A stretch of 30,371 bases of DNA, from the IMG/VR virus record IMGVR_UViG_2870879507_000003; one strand, 5' to 3'. Shown in pieces: positions 6,046 through 21,597 of the stretch; the first letter of the stretch is position 1; every line of letters begins with the position of its first letter. The translations under genes were made by a program, and so were the position numbers. The DNA comes from a virus. The notes beneath the pieces are model-generated. The model was not told where the DNA came from. It searched no databases and was given only the letters and a program-made list of their open reading frames with translations.

Positions 6046-6118
6046 GGACTCGTAGCGCAACCGGGAGCGCACCCGCCTGAAGACGGGGCAATCGGCGGTT
6101 CGAATCCGTCCGGGTCCA
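6046..6118 (+). tRNA. tRNA-Phe(GAA), virus-encoded, with atypical anticodon stem
   Basis: Acceptor GGACTCG/CGGGTCC+A; D arm GCGC-AACCGGGA-GCGC; anticodon loop CT-GAA-GA; T arm GGCGG-TTCGAAT-CCGTC; 73 nt; G30.G40 and C31.C39 mismatches. Confidence 0.75.
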
Positions 6119-9535: not shown

Positions 9536-11251
9536 GTGAGCACGACCACGCCGCCAGGGGCCCAATCGTCACGACCAGTCGCGGCGCCGCTGGATAGCAT
9601 CGGCGGCCCCGACGTCGCCGAGATGGTCCGGACGCACCTCGAGGAGGGCACGGAGCGCGTCCATCCGCTCCCGTTTTCGATCGCCCATTTGGACTCTCGG
9701 ACCGCGCTCGCCCCACCGCCACACCTCATCGACTGGTACAACCAAATTGCGGCAGCCGTCTTCGACGAGACAGCACCCAAGAACCTGGCCCTGTTCGGCC
9801 CGCGCAACTACGGGAAGACGGTTTCGACGATCGACATCACGCCGGCGTGGCTGGCGACGCGCTTCCCAGAGATCCGGATGGCGATCGTCTCCCACAAGAA
9901 AAAGCACGCCAACAAGCGGGCGAAGACGGCGGTCGCGTCGATCGAAGAGGCCTGCGACCGGTACAACATTCCGGTCTACGACTCTTCGAAGACGACGATC
10001 CAGCTCGAGGCTGGCCGGCAGAACATCGAGCCGACGCTCGAGCCGCTGTCGATCCGGACGTCCGATACGGGCTCGCACTACGACGTCATCATCTACGACG
10101 ACATCGCGACGCTGACCAACCAGACGACGGCGCTCCGAGACACCATCTCGGAGAACTTCGAGGAGTTCACCGACAACGTCGCGGCCAAGCGCGGGGCGAC
10201 CTGCCTCCCCCACAAGAGCGTCAACATCGTCATCGGGACGCGCAAGACACCCGAGGACGTCTACCGCGAGCACATCCTCGCGACGAACACGCCGGAGTGG
10301 GACGGCCACATTGCCCGCGGGACGTCGCAGCCGGGCTGGGCAGCGCGCGTCTGGCGGGCGACGCCGGACTGGCACGTCATCGAGAACGAGGAGTACGTCG
10401 TTCACGGGACCGACGGCAACGTCTACGAGACGTTGCGGGATGTCCCCGACGATGTCGACGTGATCGACGACGGCATCCGCCCGGCCGAGGGGATCGACTT
10501 CCGGACGCTCTGGCCGGCCTTCGAGCGCCCGGAAACGCTGTTGACGAAGGTCGTCGCGAAGTCGGGCTCAGCGGGGCTCTGGCGGGCGGAGAACCAGCAG
10601 AACCCTGAGGCAGCCGTCGGGCGCGTCCTCAATCTTGACTGGCTCCGATTCGTCGACCCGATCCCCCGAAAGGACTGGGATGCCTACGAGTGGTACGCGG
10701 GTCTGGACTTCGCGAACCCCGACAACCTGGCGGCCGCGGAGCGCGGCGAGTCGGACTACTGGGCCCTGGCCGTCTACGCCTACGATCGCGATCTCGACCA
10801 GGAGTACGCGGTCGACGTCTGGCGCGACCGCGGTTACATGTGGAGCGAAGCCGCGACGGACTTCGTCGCGGTCCACCTGGCGGACTACCCGGTTGGGGAG
10901 CTCCTCGTCGAGTCCAACTTCGAGGGTGGCGAGATCGCAGAGACAATCGCCGACGCGGCGACCTACGAGGACGCCGACGTTACAGTACCGGACTTCACCG
11001 TGACACCGACGGACTCGGATGGTGAGAAGGAACAGCGCTTGCACCGCCTGGCCAACCGCTTCCAGCAGGGCAAAGTCAAGATCGCGAGCGAGGAGAACGA
11101 GCGCTGGGAGTCGTTCATCCGCGAGGAGTGGCTGCCGTTCCCCGATGCGGCTCACGACGACCGCTTCGACGCCCTCGAGATCGCTTCGCGTGGCCCGGCC
11201 CAGGCGGTCGATCGTGCGTCGGGCGACGACTTCGAACACGTCGACTGGTAA
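9536..11251 (+). CDS. terL: Terminase large subunit
   Basis: Walker A LFGPRNYGKT, Walker B YDVIIYDD, coupling IVIGTRK, RNase H-like YAGLDFA / LLVESN / HDDRFDA. Confidence 0.93.
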   Translation: MSTTTPPGAQSSRPVAAPLDSIGGPDVAEMVRTHLEEGTERVHPLPFSIAHLDSRTALAPPPHLIDWYNQIAAAVFDETAPKNLALFGPRNYGKTVSTIDITPAWLATRFPEIRMAIVSHKKKHANKRAKTAVASIEEACDRYNIPVYDSSKTTIQLEAGRQNIEPTLEPLSIRTSDTGSHYDVIIYDDIATLTNQTTALRDTISENFEEFTDNVAAKRGATCLPHKSVNIVIGTRKTPEDVYREHILATNTPEWDGHIARGTSQPGWAARVWRATPDWHVIENEEYVVHGTDGNVYETLRDVPDDVDVIDDGIRPAEGIDFRTLWPAFERPETLLTKVVAKSGSAGLWRAENQQNPEAAVGRVLNLDWLRFVDPIPRKDWDAYEWYAGLDFANPDNLAAAERGESDYWALAVYAYDRDLDQEYAVDVWRDRGYMWSEAATDFVAVHLADYPVGELLVESNFEGGEIAETIADAATYEDADVTVPDFTVTPTDSDGEKEQRLHRLANRFQQGKVKIASEENERWESFIREEWLPFPDAAHDDRFDALEIASRGPAQAVDRASGDDFEHVDW

Positions 11252-11257
11252 CTATCT

Positions 11258-12955
11258 ATGAGTGAGACAGATTCAGACCCATACGTGACGAAACTCGGCG
11301 AGGACGAGGGTGGCGAACTGGTCGCGATCGACTGGCCCGACGGGAACGTCGAGCAGTCACTCCGGGCACAGATCGCGTCGACGCCACAGTCCGAGAAGGG
11401 GCACGGCGATCGCCACACTGACGAAACCGGCCCCGTCCCACGCATGTCCACCGAGTCGGGTGTGTTCGGGAGTATCGACCTGCGGACGTTCTCACTCAAC
11501 TCGACAGAGCTGTCGACGACACTCAAACGCTTCCGTGACGAGATGTATCGGAACCAGTTTCCGGCCCTCGTCCCGTCGTTCACGGACCGCTGCACCAACT
11601 GCGGAACGGAGTACGACGAGGAACGCGACACCTGTGCCGTCTGTGGACACGACGAGTTCGAAGGCCCGTCGCGCGAGCAGAAACACTGGCTGTCGTCGTT
11701 TATCGAGGCGGTCAACGACGATGGCCAGTCGTTGCGGGATCTTTTCAAATACGAAGAGGACTACCAGTCGTGGCGCGGTGTCTCGACCGTCCTCGCCCGA
11801 CTCAAATACCAGCAGGTTACCGAGGAGACGACGGTCGCCGGCCGCGAGGTGACGTCGGCGACGCGCTGGGAACCCACCGAGATCAAAGAGCTCGTCCACG
11901 CCGATCCGACGCGCATCCAGCCCGTCCTCGACGACTACAACCGCCATGGCGGGTGGTGGACGTGTCCTGCCCATCGCGAAGAGTACTGGCCGGCGGACGC
12001 ACTCACCTTCGAGGACGACGCTGACTACCCCGAAGAGGTTTGCCCGGAGTGTCACGCCCAGCTCGCCGAGGTCGGCTACGTCGAGAGGAAACAGGGGTCG
12101 GGAGACGCGTTCCGGACGCTGTACCTCAAGCACGAGGTGATCGACTGGGCGCGACACTTCCCGATCCGGAACGGCCTCGACGGCCGGTCGCCGATCCGCC
12201 CGCTGGTCAAACTCCAGGCTATCCTGCAGTGGTCGCGCAATTACGACCTCCAGTACCTCTCGCCACAGAACGACCAGCAACTCCCGGACAAGTTCCTCGT
12301 CGCCTACGGCAAGAACATCACCGAGAGCCTGCGGGTGTCACTCGAGGACGAGGAGACCAAGAACCCATGGGAGGAGGGTCGTCTCACGTACGAGGGCCAC
12401 CCGGACGACGTCGAGATCGAGCTGCTGGATCTCTCGACGTCCTCGGGGATCAACGGCCGCCAGCCGATGGTCGAGCGCCTGATGTCCCAGATCCGGGCGA
12501 TGTTCGGCATCACGGACGCCTTCGAGAACGAACTCTCGGACACGGGCGGGCTCAACGCCGAGGGCACTCAGGTCGAGATCACCAACGCGGCGATCGCCGC
12601 CGCCCACCAGGATACGAAGGACAAGGCGCTGGACACGCTCTGCCGGTTGGTCGCCATGGTCCAGGGCCACTGCGACTGGGAGTTGGCCTACGTCGATCCC
12701 GAAAGCGAGGAAAAGTCACTGTCTCCGCTGGATATCCTCGAGGGCGTCCGCCTCGCCCAGGAGACCGGGACGCGCGTCATGATCGAGGATGGCTCACTCC
12801 GCGTCCCCGATCAGGAGATCGACCCGACCGAGGCCGGCGCCGCTGCAGAGCCACCTGGCAACGCGCCGGCGGACGAACCGCCACCCGAGAGTCAGCCCAG
12901 CGAGGCACCGCCTACTGACACCGATCAGCCGACTGACCCATCCACCAACACATGA
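11258..12955 (+). CDS. Portal protein with Cys-rich insertions
   Basis: Directly after TerL, 565 aa; GRSPIRPL, IRAMFGITD, acidic/Pro-rich C-terminus typical of portals. Confidence 0.85.
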   Translation: MSETDSDPYVTKLGEDEGGELVAIDWPDGNVEQSLRAQIASTPQSEKGHGDRHTDETGPVPRMSTESGVFGSIDLRTFSLNSTELSTTLKRFRDEMYRNQFPALVPSFTDRCTNCGTEYDEERDTCAVCGHDEFEGPSREQKHWLSSFIEAVNDDGQSLRDLFKYEEDYQSWRGVSTVLARLKYQQVTEETTVAGREVTSATRWEPTEIKELVHADPTRIQPVLDDYNRHGGWWTCPAHREEYWPADALTFEDDADYPEEVCPECHAQLAEVGYVERKQGSGDAFRTLYLKHEVIDWARHFPIRNGLDGRSPIRPLVKLQAILQWSRNYDLQYLSPQNDQQLPDKFLVAYGKNITESLRVSLEDEETKNPWEEGRLTYEGHPDDVEIELLDLSTSSGINGRQPMVERLMSQIRAMFGITDAFENELSDTGGLNAEGTQVEITNAAIAAAHQDTKDKALDTLCRLVAMVQGHCDWELAYVDPESEEKSLSPLDILEGVRLAQETGTRVMIEDGSLRVPDQEIDPTEAGAAAEPPGNAPADEPPPESQPSEAPPTDTDQPTDPSTNT

Positions 12956-13368
12956 CACCAGACACCATCAGCCCGATCGACAACGACTACATCCCGCTCG
13001 CGACGCTCGTCCGCACGCTGGTAGACGACGTCGAGATCGTATCGGACACGGACGACCTCCAGGAGCGCGCGCCCACCGAGGGTCGCGTCGCGATCGTGGC
13101 CAGCGGCACTCGCCCGTACGACGTGTTCGTCGGCACCGGCGACGCGTGGCTCGACGCCAGCGCCGCGCTGGGTCTCTCTGTGCCGCTCCGACGCACCCAC
13201 CCCCAGGACCTCACGGCGGCCGATGCTCCGGCCCCGGTCGAGAACGGCGTCGAAGCCGTCCACGACGGAAGCGGCACGCCGCCGGCGGGATCGTACGTCT
13301 CCGATCCGCCGAACAACCAGTGGGTCGGCGCGGACGATCTCACCAGCGGCTCGACGATCGCCTACTGA
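12952..13368 (+). CDS. Hypothetical virion-associated protein
   Basis: ATGA overlap with portal; position in head module. Confidence 0.62.
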   Translation: MTPDTISPIDNDYIPLATLVRTLVDDVEIVSDTDDLQERAPTEGRVAIVASGTRPYDVFVGTGDAWLDASAALGLSVPLRRTHPQDLTAADAPAPVENGVEAVHDGSGTPPAGSYVSDPPNNQWVGADDLTSGSTIAY

Positions 13369-13374
13369 TCTGAA

Positions 13375-14268
13375 ATGCCCATTCAAGTAGTCAACCAGAA
13401 CGTTGCGAGTGGCCACTCGGCGGTCGGCGAACACGTCGACCCCAGCGGCCCGGTCAAGGACCGCCGCGTCACGCGCGAGGACGTCCCCGACGCGTGGGAG
13501 GAGCCGGTCTTCGAGGCTGAGAACTTCATCATCGAGGGGCCGGCCAGCGTCGAGATCGTCGACCGGTCGGGTCAGCAGATCCAGATGGATGCCGTCGCGG
13601 ACGCCCTCGAGCGCTTCCTCGAGAGTGATCGTGAGCCGGGCATCATCTCCGTCAAGCACGAGGATGTCCCCGTGGGCGTCCCGGTCTGGGAATGGGAGAC
13701 TGACGAGGGGCACTGGTACGAAACGACCGTCGGCGACGACGAGTTCACGCTGGTCGCCAACCTCGGCAACGAGACGACGAAGTCCAAGCTGGCGCGGATG
13801 CGCTGTCTCAACGGCGACTACGACGGCTACTCCGTGACGGTCTACTCGAATCAGGAACACCAGCAGCCCGACGGAACCCGTGTCACGGTCGACTGCGACC
13901 TCCACGCCGTCACGCTGGGCAACGAGGAGATGCTGATGAACCCTGAGGCCGACGACGTCTCCGTCGTGGACTTCAAGGCTGGCGGGCCGCTCGCCGCGGC
14001 GATCCAGCGCCGACTGCGACGGCGTAACTCCGTGGTCGGCCGAATCGAGCAGAAGCTGTCCGAGACCGGTATCGACCGGAAGCAGTACCCCGACGAGTTC
14101 CCCTTCGAGGGCGTCACCGAGTGCAAGCGCCACGTCGAGCAGGACGACGACTTCGACGTCGACGATCCGGGTGCGTTCTGTGCCGAGTGGGTCCGCGAAG
14201 TCAAGGGCGAGGAGCCGGCCGCCGATCAGAACACCCTCGAAAGCAAAGTTCTCGAACACCTCGACTGA
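13375..14268 (+). CDS. Putative prohead maturation protease
   Basis: IIEGPASVEIVDRSGQQI...ISVKHEDVPVG...YDGYSV pattern of HK97/XkdF-like capsid proteases; between portal and scaffold. Confidence 0.75.
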   Translation: MPIQVVNQNVASGHSAVGEHVDPSGPVKDRRVTREDVPDAWEEPVFEAENFIIEGPASVEIVDRSGQQIQMDAVADALERFLESDREPGIISVKHEDVPVGVPVWEWETDEGHWYETTVGDDEFTLVANLGNETTKSKLARMRCLNGDYDGYSVTVYSNQEHQQPDGTRVTVDCDLHAVTLGNEEMLMNPEADDVSVVDFKAGGPLAAAIQRRLRRRNSVVGRIEQKLSETGIDRKQYPDEFPFEGVTECKRHVEQDDDFDVDDPGAFCAEWVREVKGEEPAADQNTLESKVLEHLD

Positions 14269-14276
14269 CGACACTC

Positions 14277-14313
14277 CCCGATGACGGGACGGCAGGCCAC
14301 CGTCGCCAGAGGG
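14277..14313 (+). ncRNA. Putative kink-turn RNA motif upstream of scaffold/capsid genes
   Basis: CCC(14277-79)-GAT bulge-GA(14283-84) ... GACGG/CCGTC hairpin ... GA(14309-10)-GGG(14311-13). Confidence 0.5.
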
Positions 14314-14335
14314 ACCATGGCCGTGGGACCCATGT

Positions 14336-15442
14336 ATGGGATTCTTTAGTTCGACTGACACCGTTGACGGGAGAGCCCGCGCTGCGCTGGGCGACCTGCC
14401 GGAGGACCCCGCACCGTTCGAGATCCTCCGTGCGGTCGACCAGAAGGCGGGCGACGCCGTCGACCGAGACGACGTCGTAGCGACGATGCGCGATCTGGAC
14501 GACGAGATCGACGCGAAGCTGGCGGCCGTCGAGGATACCACCGTCGACCAGAAGGACATGCGCGACGCGGCGAACACGATCGCCGATCGCACGCCGCTGG
14601 CCTATCCTGGCGCGGTGGAGCTGCTCTCGGCGGTCGTCGAGAGCGTCGAGGCAATGGATCCGACGGTCTTCGTCGACGCGTTCGACAGCGCGACCGCTGG
14701 CGAGCATCTCGACGAAGACGCCGTCGATCAGAACGCCGGCGGCGATGGCGCTGCCGGCCCCGACGATGACGATGTCGACCAGAACGCGCAGCCAGACACC
14801 ACCGATTCAACCATGAGCGACGACACTCCGAACGACACCGAGAGTACCGACCCCGACGCGTCCGGCGGCGATCCCGGCGACGTCGACCAGAAGCAGGAGA
14901 CCGGAGACGGCGGCGAAGAGATGGCCCCGATCGACCTCGTCGAAGAGGTCGGCGGGTCCGACGCCGCCGACACCGTCGAGAACTACGCCGAGTCCGTGGG
15001 CAAGGACGTCCAGGACGCAGCCGCCGAGTGGATCGCCGAAAACGTCCCCGGCGTCACCGTCGAGGGCTACGGCGAGGGCGGCGGTGGCGACACCGCGCCC
15101 GGTGGCGGCGAGCCCGGGCAGGCGGACATGAACGCCGGCGCCGAACACGACCGGACCGCGCCCGAGGCGGACCAGATGGCCAATGCCGACCAGAAGCTCG
15201 CCAACGTCGACCTCAACGAGCGGGTGGCCGAGGCGGTCACCAGCGACGAGGTCATCGACGAGATGGCCGGCGCGGTCGCCCAGAAGATGGCCACCAACGA
15301 CGAACTCGCTGACGAGCTCGTCGAGACGGTCGACCAGAAGGGCGACTTCGCGACGACCGACGACACCGTCGTGACGGCGCCGGGTACCGAATCGAAGACC
15401 GTCGACGAAGCGGGCGCGATCACGGGAGGTGACGACGAATGA
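14336..15442 (+). CDS. Putative capsid scaffolding protein
   Basis: Very acidic, low-complexity, between protease and MCP; repeated VDQK/VDQN motifs; start codon uncertain. Confidence 0.7.
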   Translation: MGFFSSTDTVDGRARAALGDLPEDPAPFEILRAVDQKAGDAVDRDDVVATMRDLDDEIDAKLAAVEDTTVDQKDMRDAANTIADRTPLAYPGAVELLSAVVESVEAMDPTVFVDAFDSATAGEHLDEDAVDQNAGGDGAAGPDDDDVDQNAQPDTTDSTMSDDTPNDTESTDPDASGGDPGDVDQKQETGDGGEEMAPIDLVEEVGGSDAADTVENYAESVGKDVQDAAAEWIAENVPGVTVEGYGEGGGGDTAPGGGEPGQADMNAGAEHDRTAPEADQMANADQKLANVDLNERVAEAVTSDEVIDEMAGAVAQKMATNDELADELVETVDQKGDFATTDDTVVTAPGTESKTVDEAGAITGGDDE

Positions 15443-16668
15443 GCGCCCACCCGATGCACGGCTACGCCGGCGGCAACAGTCCCGAGCGGTTCCTCGAGTC
15501 GAACGTCGTCGACGGCGTCCCGATGGACTGGGACGACGGCCTGCTCCAGCGAGCGCAGTACGACACGACGACCGACGCCCACGTCAACGCCATCTACACG
15601 GCGACGCTGTACGCCCAGTACAACGGCGAACACGAGTGGTACAACGCGCTGACGCAGGTCGATCGCTTCAACGCCTCGCTCGAGGGGCCGGTCACGGCGA
15701 AGGCCTTCCGCGCGGCGACGAACCCCGTCGACCTGCAGACTCACCCGGAGGGCGGCCAGGTCCCCGACGGCCAGACGATGGGCGTCGAAGACGTCGAGTA
15801 CGACCCCAAGCGGTCGGACTCCGTCATCGAAGTGTCCGACCTGCAGCAGATCTACGCGGCGATCGAGGACGCCGTCGGCTTCGAGGAGTTCTGGGAGCTG
15901 CAGCAGGACCAGCTCGACCTGGCGATCGACCGCGACGGTATCGCCGGCGCGATCTATCAGGGCGACCCCGCCTACTCGGCCACCGACGAGATCACGCCGC
16001 TGGACCGGGCGATCGCCGCCAGCGACGAGGAGGACAACGCGACCGACCCCAACGGCAACGCCTACAACGCCGGTGATCTCGACTACGGGACCGTCGAGCG
16101 GGCGACCGACACCTGGGCCGACTCCTACGTCGACCACAACGGCGCGTCGGGTCCGCGGCAGCTGACGAACGACCTCTTTACGTCGTTCCTGAACTCGTTC
16201 AACGAGTTCGCCGACGTCGACGTCTACAACGACACGGCGATCCTGACGGGCCACGACACCGCGGGCGTCCTCTCGGATCTGGCGGCCGACCGGAACAACG
16301 TTCGCAACCAGGCCGCGATGGCGGACTACGTCCAGGAAGAGGTCGGCGACGGGTCGACGATTCGCGGCCTCTCCGGGACGGCCCGGTACCGCGATTACGA
16401 CGGCATCCCGATCATCGGGAACCAGCACGCCGTCAAGCACGGCGACATCTCGTCGGTCTTCTTGATCCCGACGGACACCATCCGCGGCCAGCCCCGCATC
16501 GCCATCGAGCAGTACGCCGAGCCGTACACGGAGACGGCCGGGCGCGGCCAGACCCAGGGGTACCTCGCGACGGGCAACTACCGCGACGAGGCGCTGATGG
16601 TCCTCAACCATGAGACCGTGGTCCGCGACTTCGCCAGCTGTGGCAAACTCCGGGACCTGAGCGAGTAA
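15439..16668 (+). CDS. Major capsid protein (HK97 fold expected)
   Basis: 409 aa, position after scaffold, strongest C/G-ending codon bias; NAIYTATLYAQYN, YDGIPII, C-terminal GKLRDL. Confidence 0.85.
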   Translation: MSAHPMHGYAGGNSPERFLESNVVDGVPMDWDDGLLQRAQYDTTTDAHVNAIYTATLYAQYNGEHEWYNALTQVDRFNASLEGPVTAKAFRAATNPVDLQTHPEGGQVPDGQTMGVEDVEYDPKRSDSVIEVSDLQQIYAAIEDAVGFEEFWELQQDQLDLAIDRDGIAGAIYQGDPAYSATDEITPLDRAIAASDEEDNATDPNGNAYNAGDLDYGTVERATDTWADSYVDHNGASGPRQLTNDLFTSFLNSFNEFADVDVYNDTAILTGHDTAGVLSDLAADRNNVRNQAAMADYVQEEVGDGSTIRGLSGTARYRDYDGIPIIGNQHAVKHGDISSVFLIPTDTIRGQPRIAIEQYAEPYTETAGRGQTQGYLATGNYRDEALMVLNHETVVRDFASCGKLRDLSE

Positions 16669-20190: not shown

Positions 20191-20496
20191 TCAGGACGGC
20201 AGGGTAGAAGAATCGCCGACAAACCGATCGTAATGGTCTTCGCACAGGAACAGGTGCTCAATCTGCCGAATACTTTCGGTGGGGAATGTAGACCCTGCCT
20301 CACGCATCTCTTCGAGAGTTTGGGTGCCATATTCAGCAATCTGGTCACATTCGCCACACCGGTTTCCAGTGCTTTGGGCTTCGATGAGGCGCATTTTGCA
20401 TCGGCGACAGATGATTCCGACCGAGTCTGACGGGTCGTCTTTATGTACCAACATTTCTGTTTCTTTCCGATCGGATTGGCAGACTGAGCACTCCAT
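20191..20496 (-). CDS. Accessory double zinc-finger protein, opposite strand
   Basis: CSVC, CRRC, CGEC, CEDH; AT-richer than flanks; AT-rich upstream region. Confidence 0.62.
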   Translation of the reverse strand: MECSVCQSDRKETEMLVHKDDPSDSVGIICRRCKMRLIEAQSTGNRCGECDQIAEYGTQTLEEMREAGSTFPTESIRQIEHLFLCEDHYDRFVGDSSTLPS

Positions 20497-20552
20497 ACCT
20501 GAAAATTCATTCTCTTGTTAGAAATGCGTTACCCATGCGAGAGACGAAACAG

Positions 20553-20585
20553 CCCGATGACGCCCCGAAGTCCTGGGGTCGAGGG
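20553..20585 (+). ncRNA. Putative kink-turn RNA motif upstream of tail-tube gene
   Basis: CCC(20553-55)-GAT bulge-GA(20559-60)-C-G-CCCC/GGGG hairpin-T-C-GA(20581-82)-GGG(20583-85). Confidence 0.55.
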
Positions 20586-20617
20586 ATAGGCACCGAGCGA
20601 TTTTGGAGGTAATCACC

Positions 20618-20680
20618 ATGGTGAGAGTAACGTACGACAAGAGTACAGACAGCAATACGAACAGAGGTGGTGAGCGGTGA
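20618..20680 (+). CDS. Putative 20-aa leader peptide MVRVTYDKSTDSNTNRGGER coupled to tail tube
   Basis: SD GGAGGT 20605-20610 correctly spaced; stop overlaps tail-tube GTG (GTGA). Confidence 0.38.
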   Translation: MVRVTYDKSTDSNTNRGGER

Positions 20681-21597
20681 GCGGAGCAGGCGCGGCCACC
20701 GTCGCGTTCGCCCTTGAGCAGGACTGGCGCGGCAGTCTCGCCGACAGCGACAGCGACGGCAACACGGACTACTACCTGCCGGGCAAGGACGTCGAGGTGA
20801 CGGACGGCCCCACCTACGAGAACAACCTCGAAGACGTCGACCTACCCGGGCAAGTCGAAAGCGACGAGTCGATCGCCGGCCACGCCCAGGGCTCGTTCAC
20901 GGTCGAGTGGGCGATGAGCCTCGAGCGCAAGATCGAGGAACTCATCTTCAACAGCGGCGGGACGACATGGACCAGCGGTCAGGTCCAGTCCTCGAAGTGG
21001 TTTTTCGGGCTGGATTACCTGTCAGGAACAGCAGAGCGCGCCGTGGACGGCGTCAAGCCCGACAGTTATACCGTCTCCTACGACGACGAGACGAACACGA
21101 TTCGGGAATCGCTGACGTGCAGCTACGCATCCGAGGAGTTCAACACCACGATCACACCGTCGAGCATCCAGATGCCGGCGAGTGGCGAGACGGTCCCGTT
21201 CCACGGTGCAAGCCTCGACATCAATGCTGTCCCGCAGGCCAAGCTCTCGACCGCGGAACTATCGATCAACGACATCTCACAGTTCGTCTGGGACACCGAG
21301 CGGCCGCCAGTCAACGCCGTCATGAGCAAGCCCGACGTCGAGCTATCGCTGGAGGCGGTCTTCAGCGAACCCGACCAGTACGAACTCGCGCTCGGCGGGG
21401 CTGACGCGACGACCACGCAAGACCAGCTCGAGGCCGTCCAGGCGGTGCTGGCCTTTGCGGTCGCTGGCACGCCCGCGACGGAGTTTACACTCTCGTCGAC
21501 GAAGGTCGGCCAGTACGACTGGGGCAGTCTCGTCGCGAGTGAAAATACAACCGAGTCGCTCACGCTCGACGTCAACGGGACGGAGGTGACGGCCTGA
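20677..21597 (+). CDS. Major tail (tail tube) protein
   Basis: 306 aa beta-rich; YYLPGKDVEV, GSFTVEW, VELSLEAVF; position before chaperone and tape measure. Confidence 0.82.
   Translation: MSGAGAATVAFALEQDWRGSLADSDSDGNTDYYLPGKDVEVTDGPTYENNLEDVDLPGQVESDESIAGHAQGSFTVEWAMSLERKIEELIFNSGGTTWTSGQVQSSKWFFGLDYLSGTAERAVDGVKPDSYTVSYDDETNTIRESLTCSYASEEFNTTITPSSIQMPASGETVPFHGASLDINAVPQAKLSTAELSINDISQFVWDTERPPVNAVMSKPDVELSLEAVFSEPDQYELALGGADATTTQDQLEAVQAVLAFAVAGTPATEFTLSSTKVGQYDWGSLVASENTTESLTLDVNGTEVTA

Follow-up and report, generated by a model that had tools for sequence, protein, structure and literature searches.

A conserved putative k-turn pseudoknot element ahead of late structural genes in tailed haloarchaeal viruses

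The window analysed here, the whole of the 30,371-nt stretch of the IMG/VR record IMGVR_UViG_2870879507_000003, comes from a haloarchaeal virus or provirus of the tailed, siphovirus-like kind. The late genes begin with a terminase-like gene (9536-11251), followed by a 565-aa ORF in the portal position of related loci (11258-12955), for which Pfam gave weak zinc-ribbon matches only, a protease-like gene (13375-14268), a scaffold-like gene of 368 aa (14336-15442, plus strand; phrog_33912) and, after it, a capsid-like gene (15439-16668). The tail tube gene (20677-21597, plus strand; 306 aa; phrog_18409), whose homologs carry PF18906, starts at a GTG (20677) that aligns with the N-termini of homologous tube proteins. 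An ORF of 101 aa on the minus strand (20191-20496), with three CxxC pairs, zinc-ribbon-like and without a Pfam match, separates, in antisense orientation, the head-tail genes from the tube leader. Next to it, 20497-20552 forms a divergent intergenic region and a probable promoter, which would place the motif described below near the 5' end of the tube mRNA.

The motif is a k-turn hairpin on the plus strand (20553-20585), homologous elements of which lie upstream of other tube genes. It consists of a C-stem, CCC/GGG (20553-55 with 20583-85), a 3-nt GAU bulge (20556-58), tandem G.A/A.G pairs made by GA opposite GA (20559-60 with 20581-82), a C:C pair at 3b:3n (20561 and 20580), an NC stem of five pairs, one G.U and then a 4-bp GC stretch (20562-66 with 20575-79), and a hairpin loop of 8 nt (20567-74). 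Downstream, on the same strand, are a conserved U-tract (20601-04), the Shine-Dalgarno-like (SD) site of a mini-ORF (20605-20610) and the mini-ORF itself (20618-20680), a uORF of 20 codons that contains the tube SD (20664-73) and whose TGA overlaps the tube GTG. A perfect 12-nt palindrome (20613-20624, plus strand) is centred on the mini-ORF start codon. The hairpin, the SD, the 20-codon ORF and the overlap of its stop with the tube GTG had been located in the initial annotation of this DNA, and on re-reading of the sequence both their coordinates and their anatomy proved right. A further k-turn-like hairpin with box C- and box D-like ends, located at 20405-20432 (plus strand) inside the antisense ORF region, is probably a product of chance.

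A sister copy begins 8 nt past the stop of the protease-like gene and comprises, on the plus strand, a k-turn hairpin (14277-14313), a linker (14314-17) and a pseudoknot strand (14318-22) that pairs with the loop (14295-99). A 10-codon ORF (14317-14349) begins in this pseudoknot strand and overlaps the scaffold-like start (14336); it is not conserved in the relatives. The initial annotation had placed the shared core at 14277 and 20553 alone. Both copies stand, but the exact 10-mer occurs a third time on the minus strand (10228-10237), in a coding region and without a matching hairpin; three copies on the two strands compare with 0.30 expected from shuffles, and the third is a coding-region accident. 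A start of a conserved ORF at the AUG within the GAUGA core was considered and rejected, the frames and lengths, as read from the sequences, varying among the loci and the AUG being lacking in L009 and L023.

Within the window, the fold energy of the tube-leader site is unremarkable (z = 0.49), and the within-genome enrichment over shuffled controls by which the initial annotation had proposed to judge the motif did not materialise, a generic k-turn descriptor being found 11 times against 8.0 +/- 2.8 in shuffles. Since the window alone shows no enrichment, the support comes from other loci, in the form of conservation at homologous positions and covariation.

Homologous tube loci were obtained by identity look-ups and alignment-based scans. 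Proteins about 80% identical to the capsid-like protein occur in proviruses of Halobellus, Haloferax, Halorubrum and Natrarchaeobius genomes. In DNA and protein searches of a phage collection, the tube gene gave remote matches to BJ1 and CGphi46 only and the scaffold and capsid genes gave none; single-protein locus scans with the tube gene found nothing. In one of the loci, L003, a 50-kb viral contig, genes for an IS200/IS605-type Y1 transposase and a Cas12f/TnpB-like protein (11820-13465) are inserted directly after the tube and chaperone-like genes.

The tube-type element was found upstream of homologous tube genes in nine distinct loci, which besides the window are L001, L002, L006, L009 (= L026), L010 (= L027), L022, L023 and L041. 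It is kept at homologous positions down to about 35% identity of the tube proteins. The sister form occupies the junction of the protease-like and scaffold-like genes in six to seven loci including the window copy at 14277 (the others being L028/L029, L030/L036, L031 and L035, the last a Haloferax mucosum provirus), with a weakened version in L038. Two proviruses carry further copies ahead of distal tail genes. The distant provirus L004, found in a Halopenitus MAG, lacks a copy at the tube gene and carries three elsewhere: one follows the portal gene, one precedes a mini-ORF and the 684-aa gene behind it, and one stands ahead of a 278-aa gene. In a complete Haloferax elongans provirus an extra copy lies 8 nt after a stop and before a 67-aa and then a 636-aa ORF. 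A search of 151 Halobacteria genomes with the tube-type model R1 added L041 as a clear new member and L044 as a doubtful one; the other matches seemed to fall inside coding sequence. The copies occupy intercistronic regions or 5' leaders at a distance of 9-27 nt from the start codon that follows, and often begin 8-12 nt past a stop codon or else behind a probable promoter. Both copies of the window are members of a single family, met with repeatedly in front of late structural genes, and 'regulon' is a fair word for its distribution. The earlier description of the targets as the highest-copy virion proteins is too narrow, since copies of the relatives also precede distal tail genes.

Across these loci the core is nearly invariant while the stems covary, which upholds the earlier argument for selection on structure. 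In 15 tabulated copies the 3-nt bulge always ends in U, and the GA that gives the tandem pairs of a standard k-turn is invariant on both strands; the C-stem has two to three pairs (Watson-Crick or G.U), mostly CC(C)/GG(G), in 14 of them and one pair in L002. Position -1b:-1n is C:G in 10 of the 15 and U:G in four, and 3b is C in 13. L004b has U:U at 3b:3n, and L038 carries AA instead of GA on the non-bulged strand. A model-based alignment gives 98% pairing in the hairpin, and six of the seven pairs have changed in a compensatory way; none of 500 shuffles reached the observed score. The G.U pairs in L022 and L035 make the structure strand-specific, which argues for RNA rather than DNA. A refined descriptor matched 12 times in 206 kb of loci, nearly always in intergenic sequence and on the coding strand, against 0.9 +/- 0.8 in shuffles, a comparison that is not an independent test as the descriptor was partly derived from the family. 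The reported motif is, as judged from comparative sequence analysis, one copy of a conserved folded RNA element ahead of haloviral late structural genes.

The feature that defines the family, overlooked in the initial annotation, is a predicted pseudoknot between the hairpin loop and a strand on its 3' side. RNAalifold, applied to the aligned tube leaders, chose this loop-to-downstream helix unprompted and with compensatory changes. In 14 of 15 tabulated copies the loop can form at least five contiguous Watson-Crick pairs with the 18 nt downstream, where 1.2 copies were expected by shuffling, and only one of the 15 passes the same test with the 18 nt upstream. The linker is short and frequently ends in CCA, the partner strand lying 4-11 nt 3' of the C-stem. 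The paired sequences of loop and 3' strand differ by site type and occur in six forms, so that a k-turn-dependent pseudoknot is indicated; the alignments thus indicate an H-type pseudoknot hung on a k-turn, and a short linker with such a pseudoknot would, on geometric grounds, fit a kink. The one exception among the 15 is the window's own tube copy, in which the canonical strand is degenerate and, compared with the closest relative L001, both the loop and the 3' strand are altered. Its sole candidate partner is a weaker one, 20599-20604 (plus strand), which could form four Watson-Crick and two G.U pairs with 20567-72, lies 13 nt past the C-stem and abuts the SD.

Exactly 9 nt separate the end of the pseudoknot strand from the start codon in four scaffold-type copies by script count, and the same spacing was read by eye in L030; in the tube leaders the distance to the mini-ORF start is about 15-21 nt, and the SD falls within it. 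At the scaffold junction of the close relatives L032, L033, L034 and L037 a different hairpin replaces the k-turn, and its loop, as read from the sequences, is again complementary to a downstream strand, which suggests that selection keeps a compact fold and not the k-turn as such. A covarying hairpin was observed in L032 (1880-1972), L033 (1890-1984) and L034 (4360-4451) together with a second hairpin, the 5-nt loop of which is complementary to a strand about 15 nt downstream and looks like another pseudoknot. As many tube loci have no k-turn and some scaffold junctions have a substitute, the element is dispensable or replaceable.

The mini-ORF has a wider distribution. Of 18 tube loci, 17 have an ATG-initiated mini-ORF that overlaps the tube start with its stop, where shuffling gave 2.2 +/- 1.4; the 20-codon leader ORF noticed earlier is thereby real and conserved. 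Its length is 10-20 codons (24 in L003, counted from the first in-frame ATG), the overlaps with the tube start are GTGA, ATGA, TAGTG or TAATG, and the peptide shows no conservation apart from the part in which the tube SD is embedded. Being short and unconserved in sequence, it looks like a delivery device and not a protein. It is found with or without the k-turn, which where present lies upstream of it; since relatives without a k-turn possess it, the two are separable modules, and the mini-ORF is the separate, older one. Its start always lies in a perfect palindrome of 10-16 nt, self-complementary through its centre and varying in sequence (about 2484-2499 in L001, and at the same position in L002, L006, L009, L010, L022 and L023), which could act in RNA as a hairpin over the AUG or in DNA as a dyad-symmetric operator. 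On either side of the tube-type element stands a U-rich, TTTTCAG-like motif, as in L002 (1078-1090), L009 (about 1380-1392) and L023 (about 455-466). Loci without the element have a single copy directly before the mini-ORF (L003, 9945-9958), for which reason the 55-nt module looks like an insertion into the motif.

L7Ae is the universal binder of k-turns in archaea. No virus-encoded L7Ae homolog was found, and the two host genomes searched gave one L7Ae-family match each, which makes host L7Ae the obvious candidate partner of the element; a role in virion protein stoichiometry, as suggested in the initial annotation, is hypothetical. A protein may be unneeded, since C:G at -1b:-1n and C at 3b, as found in most copies, predict folding in Mg2+ without protein under published k-turn rules (PMC6298567). 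All k-turns analysed in that work nevertheless fold on addition of L7Ae.

The reading favoured here, to which we give somewhat less than an even chance, is a gate, formed by an RNP or by the structure itself, that acts on translation initiation at the downstream cistron and is relayed to the tube gene via the mini-ORF. The element would act in cis as a structure in the mRNA leader, where a consensus k-turn (a C:G pair, then a bulge of 3 nt with U at its end, then tandem G.A/A.G pairs, with C at 3b in most cases) would kink a GC-rich hairpin, allowing the loop to pair with the strand 3' of the C-stem in a compact pseudoknot. Host L7Ae, the virus encoding none, would most likely clamp this fold, and the clamped fold would gate initiation at the downstream cistron, presumably as either a boost or a brake. 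In the tube leader it is the mini-ORF that would be gated, and because the mini-ORF stop overlaps the tube start, ribosomes would be passed to the tube gene by termination-reinitiation. The broader proposal of a dispersed late-gene k-turn pseudoknot regulon that recruits host L7Ae, with capsid, tube and tail output tied to free L7Ae, is, in our judgement, rather unlikely. If true, late-protein output would follow the state of host ribosome biogenesis, and the L7Ae/k-turn switch, already exploited in synthetic biology, would have its first natural use in a virus.

The predicted ion-induced folding is also what favours a protein-free architectural fold, in which the pseudoknot would be a stable 5' or intercistronic cap, insulating the message segment behind it or shielding that segment from 5'-to-3' decay, so that the yield of scaffold/capsid and tube would rise relative to the upstream genes. 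The haloarchaeal cytoplasm is rich in Mg2+ and K+, the SAM-I riboswitch's k-turn makes a long-range loop contact without protein, and the frequent start of copies shortly after a stop codon or a probable promoter region would suit such a cap. However, L7Ae binds essentially any k-turn, which makes exclusive protein independence in vivo improbable, and a spacing fixed at 9 nt from the start codon speaks for translation and against decay; we regard this explanation as unlikely, while giving it some weight. A further alternative is transcription attenuation, in which a GC-rich pseudoknot with a U-tract would promote or modulate termination by archaeal RNA polymerase between gene blocks. In tube-type copies a run of 3-5 U does follow the pseudoknot strand at 0-9 nt (within 4 nt except in the doubtful L010), and in L002, L009 and L023 another U5 tract lies ahead of the element. 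Most of the runs have just 3-4 U, short for an archaeal terminator, that of the scaffold-type copies falls inside the coding start, and a scan with a terminator consensus gave no match at the 14277 or the 20553 site; the presence of the U-rich motif before the mini-ORF in element-less loci moreover suggests that it belongs to the ribosome-binding context. Attenuation is accordingly held to be improbable.

The combination of a k-turn with a pseudoknot is a recurrent architecture among riboswitches, and a small-molecule riboswitch scaffolded by the two could be envisaged. Almost no conserved unpaired nucleotides exist outside the k-turn core to line a pocket, however, the sequences of pseudoknot and arms vary freely between sites, and the associated genes encode virion proteins and not metabolic ones, all of which renders a riboswitch very improbable. 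Least probable of all is a chance resemblance, or a DNA-level signal without RNA function: generic k-turn descriptors are indeed common in this GC-rich DNA and the fold energy is not exceptional, but the cross-locus conservation, the compensatory changes, the strand-specific G.U pairs and the pseudoknot statistics speak against it.

The element is previously undescribed as far as Rfam and a literature search go: no Rfam family describes the element at the 14277 and 20553 sites, the tRNA at 6046-6118 being the only Rfam match in the window in scans at gathering score and at E <= 10, and no paper describing it was found. Cis-regulatory RNAs of archaeal viruses are, to our knowledge, almost unknown. 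A 50-nt module that unites two well-understood components, a k-turn and a loop-to-tail pseudoknot (the latter putative here), is placed ahead of genes whose dosage decides virion assembly, and the conserved mini-ORF offers a natural candidate case of uORF-mediated coupling in an archaeal virus. The element is small, yields clear mutational predictions and is carried by proviruses of strains that can be cultivated, Haloferax mucosum and Haloferax elongans, so that the proposed L7Ae-dependent or structure-dependent control of late genes is directly testable.

Among known systems, the translational gate through the mini-ORF finds its closest parallel in overlapping gene pairs of Haloferax, where ATGA-type stop/start overlaps couple translation by termination-reinitiation (PMC6728339). 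The likeness lies in the overlap of the mini-ORF stop with the tube start, and by analogy the tube gene would depend on the mini-ORF in the same way; the mini-ORF differs in that the upstream partner has only 10-20 codons and an unconserved sequence. The core of a box C/D k-turn, in which box C (RUGAUGA) meets box D (CUGA), is similar to that of the element, some copies of which read UGAUGA, and a pyrimidine-pyrimidine mismatch occupies 3b:3n. Unlike a box C/D sRNA, the element has a single k-turn and lacks C'/D' boxes, a guide region and the typical terminal stem, and the element sites had no match to snoRNA or sRNA families of Rfam even at E <= 10. Readings as box C/D or H/ACA guide RNA were therefore rejected, there being no second k-turn and no pocket.

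The archaeal l7ae leaders (Daume 2017, PMC5539422; Huang, Ashraf and Lilley 2019, PMC6298567) match in their core, the six analysed all having a GAU bulge followed by G:A and A:G pairs (PMC6298567). In those leaders the SD is inside the k-turn stem-loop, whereas here it is downstream of the element, and RNAalifold of the aligned tube leaders gave no conserved helix sequestering it, so that occlusion of the l7ae type is not seen. The inability to fold without protein that marks the l7ae type is likewise not a property of the element, which is predicted to fold by itself, has a pseudoknot in addition and precedes viral structural genes; the host l7ae leaders of Haloferax mucosum and Haloferax elongans, conversely, contain no element of the viral type. 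The SAM-I riboswitch follows the same logic, its k-turn letting the terminal loop reach a long-range partner without protein (PMC3651934; Heppell and Lafontaine 2008), much as the loop of the kinked helix is predicted to pair with a distant strand in 14 of 15 copies here. Its tertiary contacts tolerate a weakened G.A pair, the G2nA variant (PMC3651934), and the same variant is found in L038. The element differs from SAM-I in being without a four-way junction and a conserved ligand pocket, and presents the shared principle in about 50 nt of viral, archaeal RNA.
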